Source: Candidatus Hydrogenedentota bacterium
GTDB lineage: Bacteria > Hydrogenedentota > Hydrogenedentia > Hydrogenedentales > SLHB01
Assembly (NCBI GenBank): GCA_045863295.1
Contig: BTWA01000054.1
Coordinates: 1-26,433, forward strand
DNA length: 26,433 nucleotides
Reading direction: 5' to 3'
The translations under genes were made by a program, and so were the position numbers. Position 1 is the first letter of the stretch. Each line of letters opens with the position of its first letter. Below the pieces are notes generated by a model. That model made no database searches. It was not told the origin of the DNA and saw nothing but the letters and a program-made list of their open reading frames with translations. This document shows positions 4,215-17,462 of this stretch, piece by piece.

Positions 4215-5321
4215 ATGCGAATCGTTCATGTTTACAAGGACTTCATGCCTCCCGTTCAAGGGGGCATGGAGCATCATATGGCGCTCATGTGCCGTTTTCA
4301 GCGCCAATGGGCCGATGTGAGCGCATTGACTTGCAGCCGGACCCTATGGACTCGAGAGGAGATGCGCAACGGCACGCGCGTGACTGAAGTAGGGGAATGG
4401 GGCCGTTTTCAGAGTGCTCCGGCTTCACCCTTGTTTCCATGGCACATGCGGCGGACGGGCGCGGATGTGATGGTCGTTCATTGTCCCAATCCGACCGCAG
4501 AGATTGGTTTTCTGATCGCGCGTCCCCGGAGCAAACTGGTAGTCCGGTATCAGAGCGATGTCGTGCGTCAGGCCGCGGCCTTTCGCATGTACGGTCCGAT
4601 CCAAATGAAAATGCTCCGGAAAGCTGATATGATCCTGGTGCATTCGCAGGCCTATCTTGACACTTCGCCTGTTCTGGGAGCAGTACGCGATCGATGCCAA
4701 GTGCTGCCGTTGGGCATCCTTCCCGAAGAATTTCAGGAGCCCGACCCCGATCTGGTAGCCAGTCTGCCGACGCGCTACGGCGGCCCGTTTGTATTGTTCA
4801 GCGGCCGACACCGGTACTATAAGGGGCTTGAGTATTTGGTGCGCGCGGCCAAAGAAATCCGTGCGTCGGTTGTACTGGCGGGGAACGGGCCCGAACGCGC
4901 CGCATGTGAAGATCTTGCGCGGACTCTGGGTGTCCCGGTGTTTTTCCCGGGTAGTCTCACTCATGACGAGTTAAAGGCCCATTTGCATGCATGCGCGGTG
5001 TTTGTGTTTCCCTCGGTGGAACGCAGCGAAGCCTACGGCATTTCGATGTTGGAAGCACACGCCTGCGGAAAGCCCGTGGTTGCCACGAAACTGGGTACAG
5101 GGGTTGAGTTCGTGAATCTGGATGGTGTGACCGGAATCAATGTTCCGCCGCGCGATCCCGGGGCGTTAGCGGCGGCCGTGAACCAGTTGTTGGCCAACGA
5201 CGTACTGAGGGAAACGTATGGGGCTGCCGCTCGCGACCGGGTATGCGCGGAGTTTCATGCGGAACGAATCGCGCGGCAGGAGTTCGAACTTTACCGGCGC
5301 CTTATCGGCCACACGGAGTAA
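4215..5321 (+). CDS. Glycosyltransferase, family 4 (GT-B fold)
   Basis: N-terminal MRIVHVYKDF..GGME, GRHRYYKGL, and FPSVERSEAYGISMLEAHACGKPVV (E-x7-E motif). ATG 4215 is preferred to the track's GTG 4158. Confidence 0.9.
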   Translation: MRIVHVYKDFMPPVQGGMEHHMALMCRFQRQWADVSALTCSRTLWTREEMRNGTRVTEVGEWGRFQSAPASPLFPWHMRRTGADVMVVHCPNPTAEIGFLIARPRSKLVVRYQSDVVRQAAAFRMYGPIQMKMLRKADMILVHSQAYLDTSPVLGAVRDRCQVLPLGILPEEFQEPDPDLVASLPTRYGGPFVLFSGRHRYYKGLEYLVRAAKEIRASVVLAGNGPERAACEDLARTLGVPVFFPGSLTHDELKAHLHACAVFVFPSVERSEAYGISMLEAHACGKPVVATKLGTGVEFVNLDGVTGINVPPRDPGALAAAVNQLLANDVLRETYGAAARDRVCAEFHAERIARQEFELYRRLIGHTE

Positions 5322-9542: not shown

Positions 9543-10615
9543 GCACACGACTGAACGGCCTGCGGACGCGCATGGCGGAACAGGGTTGCGATGCGTTTAT
9601 CAGTCTTTCTTCACCCATAAATCAGTATTTCACGGGGTTCATGGGTACCACGTCCGCTGTGGTGGTCACTGCGAATGCGGCTCATTTTCTGTGCGATTTC
9701 CGGTATACGGAAGTTGCTTCCGAAGTGGTAGACAAGGCGTATACGGTAACCGAGGTCAAGGGAAACCTGGCTACTCGGGCGGGGGAGTGCCTCACTTCAT
9801 CCGGCGTGACGGCGGTTGGCTTCGATCCCGGTTACCTGTTGGTATCCGAGTTGCACAGCATTCAGAAGGGCTATGCGGGCCGTATGGAACCCAAGCCCGA
9901 CCTCGTCTCCCCCTTGAGAATGATCAAGACTACAAGCGAAATCCAACTGATTCGGGATGCTTCAGCGTTGGCGGAGGGCGTGCTGGCCGATGCCAAGAAG
10001 ATGATCCGGCCCGGCGTGACCGAACGCGAAGTTGCGGCATGGATGGAATTTGAATTCAAGCGCCGCGGTGCTTCAGGACCCTCCTTTGAGACCATCGTAT
10101 TGTTTGGTCCCCGATCGTCGCTGCCCCATGGCCAGCCTGGAGACACCCCGCTCCGCCTTGGAGATGTCGTGCTGATTGACTTTGGCTGCAGGCGTCACGG
10201 GTACTGCTCTGACTTGACTCGAACGTATGCATTCGGTACGATCCCGGGGGTTTGGTTTGAAGAGGTTTATGGCCTCGTTTTGGAGTCGCAACGCAAGGCC
10301 CTGAAAGCCATTAAGCCTGGCTTGACCGGTCGCCAGGTGGACGAAATTGCCCGGAGCCACATTGCCGCGGGCGGGCATGGCGATCACTTTGGTCACGGGT
10401 TGGGCCATGGCTTGGGTATTGAGATTCACGAGGCGCCGCGATTAAACACGGAATCCGACGTTATTCTGAAGCCCGGCATGGTCGTTACGGTTGAGCCGGG
10501 CATCTATTTGCCGGGCCAGGGCGGCGTCCGAATTGAGGACGTTGTCGTCGTAACCGGGGACGGTTGCGAGTTGCTCAGTTCCACCCCCAAGGAGTTAGAG
10601 GTACTTCGTTCATGA
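9539..10615 (+). CDS. Xaa-Pro aminopeptidase/dipeptidase (M24B family)
   Basis: [44 protein letters not shown] overlaps with both aroQ and efp. Confidence 0.93.
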
Positions 10616-11169
10616 TTTCGACGGCGGATTTTCGCAACGGTCTTGTGGTTGTTCAAGACAACGAGTTGATGGAAATAGTTGAATTTCAGCACGTGAAGCC
10701 GGGCAAGGGCGGAGCGTTTGTGCGAACGAAATTCAAGAATGTGCTCACGGGCCGTGTCTTGGAGCGCACTTTTCGTTCGGGCGAGCGGATGCAGGACGCT
10801 CGCATAGAGCAGCAGGAATGGCAATATCTGTACAAAGACGGAGATTTGTACCATTTCATGCACCCGGAATCGTATGAACAGACGGTAGTGAGCGCTTCCC
10901 AAGTGGGCGACTCGATGAAATGGGTCAAGGAAAACGCGACACTTGACCTGTACTTCTACGACGGAAAAGTGATTAAGGCGCAGGCTCCCGCCAACGTGGT
11001 GCTGTTGATTACGCAGTGTGATCCCGGCGTCCAGGGCGATCGGGCGCAAGGCGGCACAAAACCAGCCACGCTGGAAACGGGCGTAACTGTGCAGGTGCCG
11101 TTGTTTGTGGGCGAGGGCGAGACGATCAAAGTGGATACGCGCACCGGATCGTACATCGAACGCGCGTAA
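10612..11169 (+). CDS. efp: Elongation factor P
   Basis: [50 protein letters not shown] 10612 follows a GAGG SD; the track's 10564 start is overextended. Confidence 0.97.
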   Translation: MISTADFRNGLVVVQDNELMEIVEFQHVKPGKGGAFVRTKFKNVLTGRVLERTFRSGERMQDARIEQQEWQYLYKDGDLYHFMHPESYEQTVVSASQVGDSMKWVKENATLDLYFYDGKVIKAQAPANVVLLITQCDPGVQGDRAQGGTKPATLETGVTVQVPLFVGEGETIKVDTRTGSYIERA

Positions 11170-11239
11170 GATCAAATTACATCACGGCAGGTGGTACGAA
11201 CCGCTGCATTCGGTTTGCGCCGGAGCGGAGGGCATTCAA

Positions 11240-11734
11240 TTGGAATTAGACAAGCTCAAAGAGCTTATCGAAGTATTTCAAAAGTCGGGACTGTCGGAGA
11301 TCGAGTTGGAAGAAGACGGCCGCCGCGTGCGCCTGACCAAATTCCAGCAACCGGCGCCCGCGCAGCAGATTGTGCATGTTCCCGCGCCGGTACATGCCAT
11401 GCCGCATGCGCACGCCGTATCGGCACCGCCGGCGGCCGCGCAAGAGGCGCCCCCTCCTTCCGCAGCCGTTGACGACGATGACGGCCTGGTTACCATCGAT
11501 TCGCCCATGGTGGGGGTGTTTTATGCGGCGCCCGCGCCCGGCGAGGATCCGTTCATCAAAGTGGGCGATACGGTACAGGAAAACCAGCCGGTCTGTATTG
11601 TCGAGGCGATGAAACTGATGAACGAGGTGACGGCCAAGTTCGCCGGCGTCGTGGAAAAGATACTGGTTGAGAACGGCGAGCCGGTCGAGTACAACCAGCC
11701 GCTGTTTGCCATTCGCCTGGCCGAACAGGCCTGA
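11240..11734 (+). CDS. accB: Acetyl-CoA carboxylase biotin carboxyl carrier protein
   Basis: SPMVGVFY, the EAMKLMNE biotinylation motif and a Pro/Ala linker. TTG start at 11240 after a GGAGGG SD. Confidence 0.95.
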   Translation: MELDKLKELIEVFQKSGLSEIELEEDGRRVRLTKFQQPAPAQQIVHVPAPVHAMPHAHAVSAPPAAAQEAPPPSAAVDDDDGLVTIDSPMVGVFYAAPAPGEDPFIKVGDTVQENQPVCIVEAMKLMNEVTAKFAGVVEKILVENGEPVEYNQPLFAIRLAEQA

Positions 11735-11742
11735 GCGCCCGC

Positions 11743-13086
11743 ATGTTCAGACGCATCCTCATAGCCAATCGCGGCGAGATTGCCGTACGTATTATCCGCG
11801 CGTGCCGTTCGGCCGGCATTACTTCGATTGCCGTCTACTCTTCGGCCGACCAGGATTGCCTTCATGCATCGCTCGCGGACGAGAGCATCTGCATCGGGCC
11901 ACCCAATCCGGGCGAAAGTTATTTGCACATTCCCAGCATCATTGCCGCGGCGGAGATCTGCGACGCACATGCGATTCACCCGGGCTACGGCTTTCTCTCC
12001 GAGAATCCAAAATTTGCGTCGATTTGCCGCGAGTGCAACATCGGTTTTATCGGGCCGAGCCCGGAGGCGATTGCACTGAGTGGCGACAAGGCCGCGTGCC
12101 GGCAGGCCGTAAAGAATGCTGGAGTGCCCATCGTCCCCGGCAGCGACGGTATTGTGAAAGACCCCGCGGACGCGCTCAAGCTGGCCAAGGGAATTGGGTT
12201 TCCCGTGTTGGTCAAGGCGGCGCACGGCGGGGGCGGCAAGGGGATGCGCATTGCTCACAACGATGTCGCGCTGAAGAAGGCAGTCTCCATGGCCACGGCC
12301 GAAGCGCAATCCTCCTTCGGTCATGGGGGTGTGTACTTGGAGAAGTACGTCGAGAACGCGCGTCACGTTGAAATTCAAATTCTCGCGGACGAGCACGGCA
12401 AGATTTTGTCGCTGGGCGAGCGTGAATGTTCAGTGCAGCGCCGCCATCAGAAACTTATAGAAGAGACACCGGCCTTTGGACTGTCGAGCAGCTTGCGCGC
12501 AAAGCTTTCCAAGGCGGCTATTCGCGCGTCCAAGGCGATTGGCTATAGCAATGCGGGCACCGCGGAGTTTCTGTTGGGACCTGACAACTCGTTTTACTTT
12601 ATCGAGTTCAATGCGCGCGTTCAGGTGGAACATCCCGTGACGGAAATGGTCACTGGCTTGGATATTGTGCGAGAGCAGATTCGAATTGCGTCGGGCGAAC
12701 CGTTGGGATCGATTGTGGTACGGCCGCAGGGCTGTTCCATCGAAGCGCGCGTATACGCGGAAGATCCGGACAACAATTTCGCGCCGTTTCCGGGTAAGAT
12801 TACGCGCTGCCACATTCCCGGTGGGCCCGGGATCCGTGTAGACAGCCACATCTTTCCGGGTTACGTAGTTCCGCGCTTTTACGATTCGTTGCTTGCAAAA
12901 ATCATCAGTTGGGGTCCTGACCGGGACACTGCGATTAATCGGCTTTCCGGCGCGTTGCGCGAGTTTACCGCTGTGGGCGTTAAAACTACGTCCGAACTTT
13001 GCGCGCGTATTGTGACCAGCGACCGGTTCCGCCGCGGCCAGGTTACGACGGACATGGTGGAGACGTTCCTGCCCAAACCCAAGTGA
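11743..13086 (+). CDS. accC: Acetyl-CoA carboxylase biotin carboxylase
   Basis: ILIANRGEIAVRIIR, HPGYGFLSEN, GGGGKGMR, ERECSVQRRHQK, RVQVEHPVTE, YDSLLAK. Confidence 0.97.
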   Translation: MFRRILIANRGEIAVRIIRACRSAGITSIAVYSSADQDCLHASLADESICIGPPNPGESYLHIPSIIAAAEICDAHAIHPGYGFLSENPKFASICRECNIGFIGPSPEAIALSGDKAACRQAVKNAGVPIVPGSDGIVKDPADALKLAKGIGFPVLVKAAHGGGGKGMRIAHNDVALKKAVSMATAEAQSSFGHGGVYLEKYVENARHVEIQILADEHGKILSLGERECSVQRRHQKLIEETPAFGLSSSLRAKLSKAAIRASKAIGYSNAGTAEFLLGPDNSFYFIEFNARVQVEHPVTEMVTGLDIVREQIRIASGEPLGSIVVRPQGCSIEARVYAEDPDNNFAPFPGKITRCHIPGGPGIRVDSHIFPGYVVPRFYDSLLAKIISWGPDRDTAINRLSGALREFTAVGVKTTSELCARIVTSDRFRRGQVTTDMVETFLPKPK

Positions 13087-13113
13087 TCGTGATCGGCATG
13101 CGGGTAATTTGTG

Positions 13114-13119
13114 TATAAT
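13114..13119 (+). promoter_or_regulatory. Possible -10 element for the AmaP-like gene
   Basis: Perfect TATAAT in the gap after accC, but no convincing -35. Confidence 0.3.
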
Positions 13120-13220
13120 GCGCCGGACAAGACAACGCGGAAAATCCATCCTCCCATCTCTGGAAATGCATACGCGACGTGGCGGCCGGCGCCACCGACA
13201 AGCGACGAAAGGATGACGCC

Positions 13221-13898
13221 ATGCGATTCCTGCAAGCGACTTTATTCAGGCTGTTATGCCTTGGCTTATTGGCCGGGGGCATATTGTTGTTTCAGTTCGA
13301 GATAAGTTTTCTCTATCAAACCGCGGTCTCCTATTTGCCTACGGACAATGCGCAAAATAACCTGGTCCGGTTTGTCGTTGCCATTGCCGTCGCGGTGGTC
13401 GCGTTGGTTGGTCTGATTCCGTGGGGACTCTTTGGGAAGAAGAAGTCGCGGGTGATCGAATTCGAGGATTCGCACGGTTCGATTGCCATTGAGTTGACCA
13501 ATGTCGAAGAATCCATGAACAAGATGCTTCGCAAGCTTCCCGAAGTGCATAAAATCAACATGCAGCTGATTCCGGCCGACGGCAATCGAAAGGTGCGTGT
13601 CGTGGCCGAGGTCGAGTTGAAGAAGGCATCAGGCGCTGGCGCACGCGCAATGACCAATCAACTGCGCGATCAAATCGACAGCATGGCCACGCGCCTGCTC
13701 GGCGTGGATGAGGTCGTGTCCGTCGAAGTCAAGGTCAAGCGCCTTGTGGTCGACAAGAACGAAGAGGATGCCGTTATCCGTGGTATACCGCTTATTGAAT
13801 CGACCGAAGTACAGAAAGCGAGAGCCGAAAAAAACGCACTCACGGCGCCGGACCGGAGTCTGGCGCCGCTGACCTCGGACGCGGAGCCGCTGGCGTAG
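13221..13898 (+). CDS. AmaP-like membrane anchor with an Asp23/Gls24-type domain (225 aa; possible short isoform of a frameshifted gene)
   Basis: Two N-terminal TM segments, then GSIAIELTNVEE...LPEV...LLGVDEVVSVEVKV, resembling Asp23/AmaP. Asp23/AmaP genes often follow accBC. ATG 13221 after AAAGGA. Confidence 0.65.
   Translation: MRFLQATLFRLLCLGLLAGGILLFQFEISFLYQTAVSYLPTDNAQNNLVRFVVAIAVAVVALVGLIPWGLFGKKKSRVIEFEDSHGSIAIELTNVEESMNKMLRKLPEVHKINMQLIPADGNRKVRVVAEVELKKASGAGARAMTNQLRDQIDSMATRLLGVDEVVSVEVKVKRLVVDKNEEDAVIRGIPLIESTEVQKARAEKNALTAPDRSLAPLTSDAEPLA
13829..13868 (+). other. Candidate -1 programmed ribosomal frameshift signal
   Basis: In-frame slippery heptamer A_AAA_AAC (13829-13835), 7-nt spacer, then hairpin CGGCGCCGGAC-CGGA-GTCTGGCGCCG (13843-13868). 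The -1 frame is open from 13799 to 14728. Confidence 0.45.
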
Positions 13899-13942
13899 CC
13901 ACGGGCGCATACACCTACGTCGCCTCTGAAACCGGCGAACTG

Positions 13943-14728
13943 ATGACGACCGAGCCTGCCGTGGCGGCTACTCCCGTTGTCGACGAGGCGTTACCTGCCA
14001 CTGCCGTCCAGGATTCCGATGATGTTTCCAACCTCGAGTGGGACGACCAACCGGACGAAACTGCGTCGGCAGAGCCGGAGCCCCAGGAATCGCTCGATGA
14101 CATTCCGTGGGAAGGGACCGTAGACGACGAAGACCCAGGGACTGCCGAGCCGGAAGCCGAGCCATGGGATGAGTTGCCCGCCGAAGATGAATCGGCCGAG
14201 TTGACTCCCGCTGAATTTGCATTGGACAGCGAAGAGGAACAGCCGGGCGCGGTAATTGATGAGCCCGCCCCGCTCGTTCGCGAGACAGGTTTGGCAGGTT
14301 CGAATGAGGAAGGTCCAGACGATACATCCTTTTCAAGCCTGCATGGGCCCGGCGAGACGGAAGGTACCGAGGACCCGATCCCGCCAATGGAGCCCGACGA
14401 TCCGGCTATTGATACCGCAGATGATCCTCAAATTCCGGAAGAAGCGGAGATCCCGGAAGAATTTGTTACAGACGATGTCGATGTGGGCCATTCCGAGGCC
14501 AACGCATTCGATCTGGCGGCTCGAGTGGCCCAAGACGAAACCGTAATTGCGGCTGCTGAGCCTGCGGTAGACGATTCGGTGCCGTACGCGCCAGAAGCCG
14601 AACCTGTCGACGACAGTCCCGATGCGACCGCCGTGACCATGGGTGCGGAACCTGCCCCGGTTGAGGCCGCGCAGTCGCCCGAAGTGGAGGAGCCCAAGAA
14701 ACGGCGCAAGTTTTTGGGCTTGTTCTAG
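13943..14728 (+). CDS. Highly acidic, Pro/Ala-rich low-complexity ORF, probably the C-terminal extension of the upstream AmaP-like protein
   Basis: D/E/P/A-dominated 261-aa ORF ending KKRRKFLGLF, followed by a double TAG TAG. No SD before ATG 13943, and the frame stays open back to 13799. Confidence 0.7.
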   Translation: MTTEPAVAATPVVDEALPATAVQDSDDVSNLEWDDQPDETASAEPEPQESLDDIPWEGTVDDEDPGTAEPEAEPWDELPAEDESAELTPAEFALDSEEEQPGAVIDEPAPLVRETGLAGSNEEGPDDTSFSSLHGPGETEGTEDPIPPMEPDDPAIDTADDPQIPEEAEIPEEFVTDDVDVGHSEANAFDLAARVAQDETVIAAAEPAVDDSVPYAPEAEPVDDSPDATAVTMGAEPAPVEAAQSPEVEEPKKRRKFLGLF

Positions 14729-14813
14729 TAGTGCTATTGCACTCAACGTGCGGCAGATCACCGGGGGTATGCATGACCGGCGGAGTTATGAACGCGAAAG
14801 GGCCGTTGACGGC

Positions 14814-14842
14814 TTGAATCCCGTCGGGGCCTGTGCCATACT
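14814..14842 (+). promoter_or_regulatory. sigma70-type promoter for hisI-trpE-trpG
   Basis: TTGAAT (14814-14819), 17-nt spacer, CATACT (14837-14842) with extended -10 TG at 14834-14835. Confidence 0.55.
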
Positions 14843-14886
14843 TTGACGGTACGCAGTCGCGTTACAACGTATCCGGAGAACACGGG

Positions 14887-14940
14887 ATGCCACGCATCGA
14901 TTTTACCTGCCTTCGATGGCGTCACCGTGTCCATTCCTGA
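14887..14940 (+). CDS. Candidate 17-aa leader peptide MPRIDFTCLRWRHRVHS
   Basis: GGAG SD at 14875-14878. Contains one Trp and two His codons, and lies within a hairpin between the predicted promoter and hisI. Confidence 0.3.
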   Translation: MPRIDFTCLRWRHRVHS

Positions 14941-15012
14941 TCCTCGGCCGCGCCTCGCCGAATATCCAATCCCATAATTATCCCAGTGATGAACTAAATT
15001 GAGGGAGTTGCC

Positions 15013-15402
15013 ATGGGCTCCAATGCCAGTATTGTGGGCAATCTGCACGAAGTTGTGAAGCTCGACGATAAAGGTCTTGTTTGCGCGGTGGTCCAACATC
15101 ACCTGACCGGACAAGTGCTGATGGTTGGCTACATGAACCGGGAATCGCTGGAGATTACATTGCGCGACAAAAAGGCCTGTTTCTGGTCCCGGTCGCGCCA
15201 GGAATTGTGGCTCAAGGGTGCGACATCCGGCAATGTGTTGAACGTGATGGAAGTACGTGTGGACTGCGATGCCGACGCTATTTTGCTCCGGTGCGATCCG
15301 GTGGGTCCGACCTGCCACACCAACGAGACCAGTTGCTTCTACCGGAAGGTGGAAAGCGACGGCTCGATGGCGCTGGACGGCGATGGCGTGGCAAAGAAAT
15401 AG
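15013..15402 (+). CDS. hisI: Phosphoribosyl-AMP cyclohydrolase
   Basis: GQVLMVGYMN, FWSRSRQELWLKGATSGN, DCDADA, TCHTNETSCFY. No fused HisE domain. SD GAGGGAG. Confidence 0.96.
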   Translation: MGSNASIVGNLHEVVKLDDKGLVCAVVQHHLTGQVLMVGYMNRESLEITLRDKKACFWSRSRQELWLKGATSGNVLNVMEVRVDCDADAILLRCDPVGPTCHTNETSCFYRKVESDGSMALDGDGVAKK

Positions 15403-15417
15403 ACAAGGGAACTGAGC

Positions 15418-16899
15418 ATGATTCACCCGACCCTGGACGAATTTCGCGCGCTGGCAAAGCCCGGCGCATTGGTGCCGGTGTACCGCGATATCGTCGCGGA
15501 CTTGGAGACACCGGTAACCGCATACATGAAGATAGCGCGAAACGAGAAGTATTCGTTTCTTCTGGAGAGCGTCGAGCGCGCCGATACCATCAGCCGCTAT
15601 TCATTTCTGGGTACGAACCCATCCATCATTTTCCGGTCCAAGGGCCGGAAGGTAACCATAGCGCGAAACGGCGAAGAGACTACATTCGATTCGCCGGACC
15701 CGTTGAGCGAGTTGAAAAAACTCATGTCCGCCTATCATCCGGTTCACGTGGATGGACTGCCGTATTTTCATGGTGGCGCGGTGGGATACATGAGCTATGA
15801 CCAGGTCCGTTTTTTCGAAAAACTGCCGGACAACAATCCCGATACATTGAACCTGCCTGACCTCTATTTCATTATCACCGATTCCATTCTTGTATTCGAT
15901 CACTTCAACAACCGGCTGAAAGTGATTTGCAATGCGCATGTAGGCGACGATGTCGATGCGGCGTATGCCAAGGCCGTTCAGACCATAGAAAACCTGGTGC
16001 AAAAGATGAAGAAGCCGCTGGTGGTGCCAAACGAGCGCATTCACGGCAGCGAGGTCAACACGGAAATCCGGTCGAGTTTTACGAAAGATGCCTACTGCGA
16101 AGCGGTTGCCAAGGCAAAGGAATACATCAGCGCGGGCGACATTTTTCAGGTCGTGCTTTCCCAACGGTTCGAGCGCGAGGTATACACGAGTCCGATCCAT
16201 TTGTACCGGTCGCTTCGATGCATCAATCCCTCGCCGTACATGACGCTGCTTCAATTCCCCGATTTCAGCTTGATCGGATCAAGTCCGGAAGTCATGACGG
16301 CCGTGCGCAATGGCCGCGTGCGGCTACGGCCCATCGCAGGCACCCGCGCGCGCGGCGACAATGCGGAAGAAGATCTGGCGCTGGAAAAAGATCTGCTCGC
16401 GGACGAAAAGGAAATCGCCGAGCACATCATGCTTGTCGATTTGGGGCGAAACGACGTAGGCCGCGTAAGCAAGCCCGGCACGGTGGCCCCGACTCGGTTG
16501 ATGGTTGTGGAGCGGTACTCGCACGTAATGCATATCGTGAGCGAAGTGGAAGGTGATCTGGCGCCCACGGAGGATGCCTTCTCTGCGTTGAGTGCAACGT
16601 TTCCAATGGGCACCGTCAGTGGAGCGCCCAAGATTCGCGCCATGGAAATCATCGACGAACTGGAGCCTCTGCGCCGTGGACCCTACTCCGGTGGCTGCGG
16701 CTACATTGGATTTGATGGCGCCATGGATACCTGCATCGTCATCCGCACGATTGTCTTGAAAGACAACATTGCATACGTTCAAGCTGGCGCCGGTATCGTG
16801 TACGACAGCGTACCCGAACGCGAATATCAGGAATGCGTGAACAAAGCGAAAGCCCTGTTCCGGGCCGTGGAATTCGCCGAACAAGGACTCGAATCATGA
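15418..16899 (+). CDS. trpE: Anthranilate synthase component I
   Basis: [58 protein letters not shown]. Confidence 0.93.
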
Positions 16900-17462
16900 T
16901 AGTGATGATCGATAATTACGACTCGTTCACATACAACCTCGTGCAATACTTCGGTGAATTGGAACCGGACATCCGGGTCTACCGAAACGATGCGATCGAT
17001 GTTGCTGGCATTCGTGCGCTAAAGCCCGATCGGATCGTCGTTTCGCCAGGGCCTTGCACGCCTTACGAAGCAGGCATTTCCATCGAAACGATTAAGGAAC
17101 TTGGCCCCGAGATTCCGCTTCTTGGCGTCTGCCTTGGCCACCAGAGCATCGGCGCGGCATTTGGCGGCGACGTTGTCCGCGCGGGCAAGATTATGCACGG
17201 CAAGATCAGCGTGATGAAGCACAACGGCAATGTGTTGTTCAAAGACGTGCCTTCGCCGTTTAAAGCCACCCGGTATCATTCGTTAATCATCAAGAAAGAC
17301 ACGTGTCCGGATTGCCTCGAAGTGATTGCGGAAACAGCGGATGACGGCACCATAATGGCCGTCGCACACAAGAAGTTCCCGATTTGGGGCGTGCAATTCC
17401 ATCCCGAGAGCATCCTGACTGAATCCGGAAAGCAGATGATAAAAAACTTCATGAAGGCCTGA
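16896..17462 (+). CDS. trpG: Anthranilate/aminodeoxychorismate synthase component II (glutamine amidotransferase)
   Basis: [46 protein letters not shown] overlap with trpE puts the start at 16896. Confidence 0.93.

Follow-up and report, generated by a model that had tools for sequence, protein, structure and literature searches.

A gene for an AmaP-like membrane anchor in an uncultured sludge bacterium of Candidatus Hydrogenedentota is broken across two reading frames, and at the break lie a slippery heptamer, a short spacer, and a GC-rich hairpin arranged as in a −1 frameshift cassette. The gene occupies positions 13221–14728 of a stretch of 26,433 nucleotides (nt), hereafter the window (NCBI GenBank assembly GCA_045863295.1, contig BTWA01000054.1, positions 1 to 26,433, forward strand). 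It consists of an open reading frame (ORF) for the AmaP-like protein, here called ORF1, and a second, acidic ORF that overlaps it in the −1 frame. The heptamer, spacer, and hairpin were confirmed in the sequence and are rare in this genome, the frame break is real DNA, and comparison with relatives indicates that the two ORFs belong to one gene. We consider it moderately probable that the break is bridged by lineage-specific −1 recoding, which would yield isoforms of 225 and ~502 amino acids (aa) by ribosomal slipping, with transcript slippage on a run of seven A residues (A7) as a possible contributor.

Slippery Heptamer and Hairpin in the Overlap

Within the stretch where both frames are open, A_AAA_AAC is the sole in-frame X_XXY_YYZ heptamer of the gene, and it is followed at short distance by a GC-rich hairpin (coordinates in Table 1). 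The extended form of this hairpin comprises 14 base pairs (bp) and one bulge, with a folding energy of −24.8 kcal/mol and a z-score of −4.27, a stability matched by none of 200 shuffles. Two hallmarks of a bacterial −1 frameshift cassette are present: a heptamer inside the overlap and a structure 4–7 nt downstream of it. The genome encodes tRNA-Lys with the anticodons UUU and CUU, and one tRNA-Asn (GUU).

A first-pass annotation of the window had described an acidic ORF in the −1 frame, open from 13799, overlapping the upstream gene by 100 nt and lacking a Shine–Dalgarno sequence at ATG 13943. It had also pointed to an in-frame A_AAA_AAC at 13829–13835 and, after a 7-nt spacer, to an 11-bp hairpin with one G-U pair at 13843–13868. 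All of these coordinates hold: the phase of the heptamer was verified by counting from ATG 13221, and the stem proved to be extendable. The −1 frame contains no ATG, GTG, or TTG from 13799 to 13942, and no GGAG, GAGG, or AGGA occurs in the 20 nt ahead of ATG 13943. As a coding signal is nonetheless found upstream of this ATG (see below), entry into the tail frame must come from frame 0.

Other roles for the hairpin were considered and rejected. It is not a repeated element, since the genome holds short chance matches only, and it is not a terminator, as no T-run stands behind it on the plus strand; a terminator scan returned a weak 5-bp alternative on the minus strand only, with a count not above that of shuffles. 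No Rfam family matched the hairpin.

The heptamer–spacer–hairpin layout, which the first-pass annotation had recognized as the classic −1 frameshift arrangement, is statistically exceptional for this genome by coding-window, GC-matched, and junction-scan nulls. Runs of at least seven A or T number 462 in the 6.34 Mb genome, i.e., ~0.004 per 100 nt on a given strand. For 35-nt windows, a folding energy of −22.8 kcal/mol or lower was reached once in 6000 random in-frame coding windows, 11 times in 4000 windows matched for GC, and twice in 3000 dinucleotide-shuffled versions of the site. Among the 4574 in-frame X_XXY_YYZ heptamers in ORFs of at least 250 aa, four are followed by a structure at −20 kcal/mol or better. 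A genome scan for comparable junctions required that the heptamer be preceded by 100 or more open codons, that frame 0 reach a stop within 60 codons, and that the −1 frame stay open for 150 codons or more; of the 308 sites that qualified, the one at 13829–13835 ranks first by hairpin stability.

Two further combinations of an A-rich heptamer and a hairpin in this genome (handle G000), at C4:4300 and C23:23923, were tried as positive controls and discarded because their frames are non-coding or antisense. On contig C4, at ~4290–4345, an A8 run is followed after 3 nt by a 9-bp GC-rich hairpin (−20.8 kcal/mol) between non-coding-looking frames; this is probably a terminator read from the opposite strand.

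Two Reading Frames of One Gene

Homologues of ORF1 were found in 38 of 41 related genomes and in 48 of 54 family genomes, and all of the matches lie in open frames of 120–521 aa without internal stops. We fetched 61 loci, of which 55, including the window itself, gave a tblastn hit (L126, L127, L135, L137, L138, and L139 were left out for lack of one), leaving 54 orthologues. In 53 of these 54, the frame continues past the domain into a tail of 57–269 aa whose fraction of Asp and Glu (D+E) is 0.15–0.43; two of the 53 run off their contig. The acidic ORF, counted from ATG 13943, has a comparable composition (D+E 0.295, Lys and Arg 0.027) and no family in Pfam or NCBIfam. Its ESM Atlas model is predicted to be disordered, with a predicted local distance difference test (pLDDT) score of 0.38, and a search of the Atlas with the tail gave no hit at 0.8 or above.

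An exhaustive protein search of representatives returned 255 relatives at E ≤ 0.001. The nearest, P0002 (46% identity), is an N-terminally cut fragment of 254 aa from a single Joint Genome Institute (JGI) contig of 1304 nt. Over its final 15 residues, the acidic ORF aligns with the C-terminus of P0002 with a score of 32, against 14.7 ± 3.2 for shuffles, none of which reached it in 2000 trials. A short motif, TSFxSL, is found in 10 of the 54 orthologue tails and in the acidic ORF. Judged from sequence, the acidic ORF is the gene's own tail, and both ORFs are one gene. Gene order supports this assignment, since the acidic ORF occupies the place of the tail in the conserved accC-amaP-hisI arrangement.

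The first-pass annotation had proposed one gene with two isoforms. The first part of this claim is borne out by the relatives, which carry the tail in frame. A conserved programmed frameshift finds no support, because the 54 orthologues and P0002 are all continuous and lack the heptamer; what can be considered is a frameshift confined to this lineage.

One orthologue, L133 (G037:C15), is naturally tail-less, with 32 aa past the domain and a D+E of 0.09. The existence of this protein makes the short form plausible as a working protein. The gene directly after L133 is one that we take to be hisF, with hisI next.

The tails show other regularities. TSFxSL stands 15–26 residues from the end in the ten orthologue tails and mid-tail in the window's much longer one. 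Tail ends share a motif made of an acidic run, K or R, and hydrophobic or aromatic residues (K-x-x-L-W in several genera, K-R-F-G-L-F in P0002), which is carried by L007, L022, L023, L025, L026, L108, L018, L019, L021, and P0002, with a close match at 14681–14725 of the window.

Long homopolymers occur at or near the same place in two other members of the family. L008 (G010:C17) has an A10 run at codons ~194–197 (GAA AAA AAA AAG, E-K-K-K), so that A_AAA_AAA and A_AAA_AAG both stand in frame where the window has its A7 in the linker. A stop is met after 6–7 codons in the −1 frame and after ~13 in the +1 frame, such that slipping would yield a tail-less form; a strong hairpin is absent after the run (−7.8 kcal/mol). 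L004 (G024:C336) has a G8 run (GCG GGG GGG GCC) at codons ~176–178, at the conserved domain end. Across the family, homopolymers of at least seven in the junction zone were found in 3 of 55 genes, including the window, against 0.7–1 expected, which is not significant.

Coding Signal and Probable Position of the Ancestral Junction

Coding potential was scored by codon log-odds, with 1190 long ORFs of the genome as the training set. The score is +92.9 bits for ORF1 and, for 13943–14725 read in the −1 frame, +137 bits, or 0.53 per codon. The 15 codons between TAG and ATG 13943 (13898–13942) score +10.3 bits in the −1 frame, as opposed to −18 and −20 in the other two. With coding signal ahead of the only available start, translation must have entered the −1 frame upstream of it, now or until recently.

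In the overlap itself, both frames look coding. Over 13835–13897, frame 0 scores +9.4 bits, frame −1 scores +3.4, and the third frame −24. In real genes, off-frames reach these scores in 0.2% of cases for +1 and 1.6% for −1, and both do so in 0.06% of windows. The cumulative score of frame 0 climbs steadily to the TAG, while that of frame −1 is flat to ~13870 and then rises. If the ancestor had a single frame, a junction near 13895 fits ~6 bits better than a junction at the A-run. The alignment with P0002 is collinear up to ORF1 residue 223 (45% identity over 165 aa, E 2e-44), and the part of P0002 that comes next shows a weak match to the −1-frame peptide immediately beyond the TAG, with local scores that are not significant alone (P 0.14 and 0.39). 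P0002 has a K-K pair directly ahead of its matching linker segment. The 20–21-aa linker peptides gave no discrimination between the frames when compared with the 54 orthologue tails (z −0.2 for frame 0, +2.0 for frame −1), and no order-specific similarity to the P0002 linker was detected in either frame (P 0.14 for frame 0, 0.71 for frame −1).

The first-pass annotation had added the caveat that a single-base deletion near 13890 in a once-continuous gene would explain the data about as well. Codon statistics and the weak P0002 alignment agree with it in placing the junction near 13895, and a base was probably lost there and not within the A-run. With the junction at this position, the A-run and hairpin upstream of it are less readily accounted for as side effects of the mutation.

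Reality of the Frame Break

We compared Logan contigs (contigs, not raw reads) of four sequencing runs, X1, X2, X3, and X7, with the window over 13100–14900. X1, a possible source run in an independent assembly, covers the whole interval with 0 differences. X2, from a second study, has contigs over 13748–13898 and 13908–14279 with 0 differences and 0 gaps, at a low depth of 2.8. X3, from a third study, covers 13596–13849, including the A-run, with 0 differences. X7 leaves 13593–14160 uncovered and is hence uninformative on the break. No inserted or deleted letters are listed in the compared contigs. All three samples that cover the run have A7, in contigs that drop rare variants, and one single-nucleotide polymorphism was seen across the compared pieces, which marks these populations as nearly clonal.

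The frame break is real DNA: the overlap was reproduced in one independent study and the A-run in two. The possibility of a sequencing error, left open by the first-pass annotation, is largely removed by independent-study contigs that are identical across the whole overlap.

Proposed Recoding and Its Alternatives

The recoding model can be rationalized as follows. An ancestral acidic and disordered C-terminal tail would have been shifted to the −1 frame by the loss of one base in this lineage. Standard decoding would then end at TAG 13896–13898 and give the 225-aa tail-less form, while some ribosomes, paused by the hairpin, would slip back one base on A_AAA_AAC and read the −1 frame to 14728. 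The predicted product joins ORF1 residues 1–205 to the −1-frame continuation, giving the tailed form of ~502 aa. RNA polymerase slippage that adds one A to A7 would lead to the same frame and may contribute. If the gene is recoded, all of the features described above are expected. The slipping itself, its rate, and its selected, as opposed to incidental, nature are what we infer from this arrangement.

The cassette may also predate the break, which we consider improbable. Ribosomes slipping to −1 in a continuous ancestor would have terminated ~30 codons further on and released a minor tail-less isoform, comparable to dnaX gamma; the loss of a base near 13895 would then have inverted the ratio, so that the tail-less form became the rule and the tailed one a recoded minority product. 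In the frame that such an ancestral slip would have entered, a stop now stands 9 codons past 13898. This idea is echoed by L008, in which slipping on the in-frame A10 run, with its A_AAA_AAG, at the same linker position would lead to a tail-less form.

A number of observations weigh against recoding. The frame break is found in 0 of 54 orthologues, and P0002 is likewise a single-frame gene with an acidic tail. The last three bases of high-efficiency heptamers are all purine or all pyrimidine (e.g., AAG), whereas the A-site codon here is AAC. In passages of two sources, A_AAA_AAC is described as a low-efficiency shifter in E. coli, and bacterial ribosomes as tolerating AAC-to-AAA re-pairing poorly (PMC4066793, PMC5009743). 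Orthologue linkers are rich in Ala and Pro, and GC-rich hairpins are frequent in them (best z ≤ −3.3 within 60 codons in 8 of 26), and by linker scan, orthologue L024 reaches a z of −5.0 against −5.8 at this site; the hairpin is therefore less exceptional in this family than genome-wide. The overlap looks like dual coding, but this signal is confounded and not independent of the hairpin, because a GC-rich palindrome by itself biases two frames towards Ala, Gly, and Pro codons. Composition-corrected BLASTP of the −1-frame translation against the 54 orthologues gave no significant alignment (best E 1.8), so the assignment of the tail rests on position, composition, and short motifs. Among samples, near-identity leaves persistence over evolutionary time unsupported, contigs hide minor length variants of the A-run, and no RNA run was found to contain the stretch. 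Among relatives, none closer than 46% was recovered: two scans of metagenome contigs, with ORF1 and with P0002, were empty, a homologous-protein search returned only the query at near lengths and nothing at longer ones, and the best identity in the 54 family genomes is 39%. Among these relatives, of up to 46% identity, the break is not conserved, and the heptamer lacks the high-efficiency motif. We regard the gene as a candidate for dnaX/IS1-style frameshifting, not as an established case.

Several of these points are what one would expect of a plain one-base deletion, from A8 to A7 or near 13895, that has become fixed. ORF1 would then be a 225-aa truncation, the acidic ORF a recent untranslated relic, the signals coincidental, and any slipping incidental. 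Every relative is continuous in one frame, GC-rich hairpins are common in the linkers, the tail-less L133 exists, and near-clonal samples leave room for a young mutation. Homopolymer runs are indel hot spots according to the part of PMC4066793 that treats them, and the A10 run of L008 at the matching linker position makes an ancestral A-run plausible. The prior is low for recoding, as the section of the GeneTack study that gives the counts lists 4010 pseudogene clusters and 146 recoding clusters (PMC3711429). We nevertheless hold a fixed mutation to be rather unlikely. Had the base been lost in the A-run, frame 0 downstream should look off-frame, yet it scores +9.4 bits over 20 codons, as do 0.2% of +1 off-frame windows; the run would be accounted for as a hot spot, but the hairpin and the coding-like frame 0 would be left as coincidences. 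Had it been lost near 13895, the A7 run (~0.004) and the hairpin (0.0002–0.003) in one short overlap would be two independent coincidences. In either case, the tail frame of 297 codons shows no decay and has kept its C-terminal motif. Even under this explanation, the layout is expected to give some incidental −1 product, in the manner of the 'savior' indels described in part of PMC5009743.

The remaining explanations fare worse. A split gene, in which the acidic ORF is started at ATG 13943 by re-initiation after TAG 13896–13898 to make a free soluble acidic protein, is very unlikely. In its favour, the stop and the ATG are 44 nt apart on one strand and presumably share a transcript, and the ORF is intact and coding-like; against this stand the absence of a Shine–Dalgarno-like sequence, the −1-frame coding signal over the 15 codons upstream of the ATG, and a product that is predicted to be disordered and belongs to no family. 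Moreover, a separate acidic gene is found at this position in none of the orthologues, and re-initiation would leave the heptamer and hairpin unexplained. Phase variation of the DNA, whereby replication slippage would interconvert A7 (short form) and A8 (long form) and assemblies would show the commoner state, seems less probable still. One extra A in the homopolymer tract would restore a single frame, and L008 and L004 also have long runs at the domain end. However, A7 is short for a phase-variable tract, junction-zone runs are not significantly enriched (3/55), and such a switch does not explain the hairpin; the constancy of A7 in the three covering samples, with no indel listed, counts weakly, since contigs drop rare variants. 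Least credible of all is a sequencing or assembly error in a truly continuous gene. The genome is a draft of 88 contigs, with a homopolymer and a GC-rich palindrome close to the break, but the X1 and X2 contigs agree over the overlap, X3 confirms the A-run, and no indel letters are listed.

The AmaP-like Protein

The AmaP-like label given to ORF1 by the first-pass annotation is supported by NCBIfam NF033218 (AmaP), with a score at the cut-off: 54.2 bits for the whole of ORF1 and 55.0 bits for residues 1–190, against a cut-off of 55, over model positions 1–166 of 166. All 31 of the aligned family members match NF033218 at E ≤ 0.001. Pfam has no match for ORF1. An AlphaFold2 model computed from the family alignment (pLDDT 84.4) has helices at residues 2–25, 30–37, and 45–65, followed by a predicted beta-beta-alpha-beta-beta-alpha-beta domain that ends near residue 178. 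Foldseek against the Protein Data Bank (PDB) returned weak generic alpha/beta matches, e.g., EscJ and the C-terminal domains of cation-diffusion facilitators, with a query template modelling (TM) score of ~0.3, and a profile search of PDB sequences with ORF1 yielded nothing meaningful.

In Staphylococcus aureus, AmaP anchors Asp23 to the membrane, as stated in the part of PMC6954212 that concerns it. The protein described here resembles S. aureus AmaP in its match along the full NF033218 model, its N-terminal membrane segment, and its small alpha/beta domain. It differs in a score that lies at the cut-off, in a long acidic disordered tail, and in its surroundings, as the family of Hydrogenedentota and relatives sits between accC and hisI and not in an asp23 operon. 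Furthermore, the Asp23 family (PF03780) was not found in this genome, which is 96% complete, in a search whose control was positive in 5 of 14 known genomes. The AmaP-like family here may anchor something other than Asp23.

Relation to Known Frameshift Systems

The closest parallels are found among chromosomal genes and insertion sequences. Like dnaX, which encodes tau and gamma in E. coli, the gene is chromosomal and non-mobile, combines an A-rich heptamer with a downstream stem-loop, and would make isoforms with a common N-terminal part that differ by the presence of a C-terminal region. In the dnaX type as described in part of the GeneTack study, recoding is needed for the longer product, tau (PMC3711429), as it would be for the tailed form proposed here. 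Unlike the present break, which is known from sequence in one species, frameshifting in dnaX is conserved across many species and experimentally shown. The dnaX heptamer, A_AAA_AAG, also shifts much better in E. coli than A_AAA_AAC does, according to a passage of PMC5009743.

IS1 uses the same heptamer, A_AAA_AAC, for a −1 shift that joins the upstream insA to the longer downstream insB', as reported in the portion of PMC4066793 on this element; by the same portion, IS1 is mobile, shifts at a low level, and has no established stimulator. Here, by contrast, the site belongs to a membrane-protein gene in a housekeeping neighbourhood, with a very stable hairpin and no transposase. The G-run of herpesvirus thymidine kinase, a 'savior' indel discussed in a section of PMC5009743, is similar in that an indel hit an ancestrally continuous gene and slipping on a homopolymer restores some full-length product. 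In thymidine kinase, no dedicated stimulator lies downstream and the product made without a shift is of no use, whereas here a strong hairpin stands at the right spacing and the tail-less form may itself work, as L133 suggests. E. coli copA, also treated in part of PMC5009743, is a chromosomal membrane-protein gene with two products made by a −1 shift. In copA, the shifted product is a short chaperone of 70 aa, while here it would be the long one.

The genome's own dnaX (G000:C2:160377–161447, minus strand) has no A_AAA_AAG. It does contain an in-frame C_CCT_TTC at codon ~430 of a 591-codon open frame, where the −1 frame stops after 2 codons and a hairpin of −15.0 kcal/mol follows, a position typical for a gamma-type product. 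This heptamer is a possible second frameshift site in the genome, to judge from its letters.

Implications

To our knowledge, programmed −1 frameshifting in stable chromosomal genes of bacteria is known from only a handful of families. If the recoding proposed here takes place, it would add a family from an uncultured phylum, Candidatus Hydrogenedentota, in which recoding sets how much of a membrane anchor carries a long, acidic, disordered tail and how much lacks it. It would be a very young event, since every relative is continuous, and could illustrate the way in which a slippery site and a hairpin let a frameshift mutation be tolerated or exploited. Were the cassette older than the break, a single indel would have flipped the stoichiometry of the isoforms at a pre-existing frameshift site. 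Were the break instead a plain mutation, the locus would call for caution, as a full textbook layout of heptamer, spacer, strong hairpin, and intact −1 ORF would have arisen unprogrammed.

Locus and Feature Coordinates

Table 1. Features of the broken amaP-like gene (window positions).
Feature	Position	Strand	Description
ORF1, frame 0	13221..13898	+	ATG 13221 to TAG 13896–13898, 225 aa; AmaP-like; predicted short isoform
Overlap, frames 0 and −1 both open	13799..13898	+	100 nt; begins after TGA 13796–13798
A7 homopolymer run	13828..13834	+	possible RNA polymerase slippage site and mutational hot spot
Slippery heptamer A_AAA_AAC	13829..13835	+	in phase; frame-0 codons GAA AAA AAC
Spacer	13836..13842	+	7 nt to the 11-bp core stem, 4 nt to the extended stem
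GC-rich hairpin	13840..13872	+	core 13843–13868: 11 bp, one G-U pair, 4-nt loop CGGA; proposed frameshift stimulator
−1-frame continuation	13835..14728	+	297 codons and stop; disordered acidic tail of the predicted long isoform
First ATG of the −1 frame	13943..13945	+	without a Shine–Dalgarno-like purine run ahead; coding signal extends upstream
Acidic ORF, −1 frame	ATG 13943 to 14728	+	261 aa
−1-frame-encoded peptide	within 13835–13942		e.g., THGAGPESGAADLGR
0-frame peptide marking the short form			SLAPLTSDAEPLA

The part of the window from 10564 to 17462 is occupied, on a single strand, by efp, accB, accC, the amaP-like gene, hisI, trpE, and trpG, the neighbours being named by Pfam. AccC is 71–77% identical to that of metagenome-assembled genomes labelled Candidatus Hydrogenedentota. 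Of the 54 orthologous loci, 29 have accC upstream and 20 have hisI downstream within the DNA retrieved. The start of hisI is 285 nt past the stop of the acidic ORF in the window, and 222–387 nt past the amaP stop in 13 orthologues.

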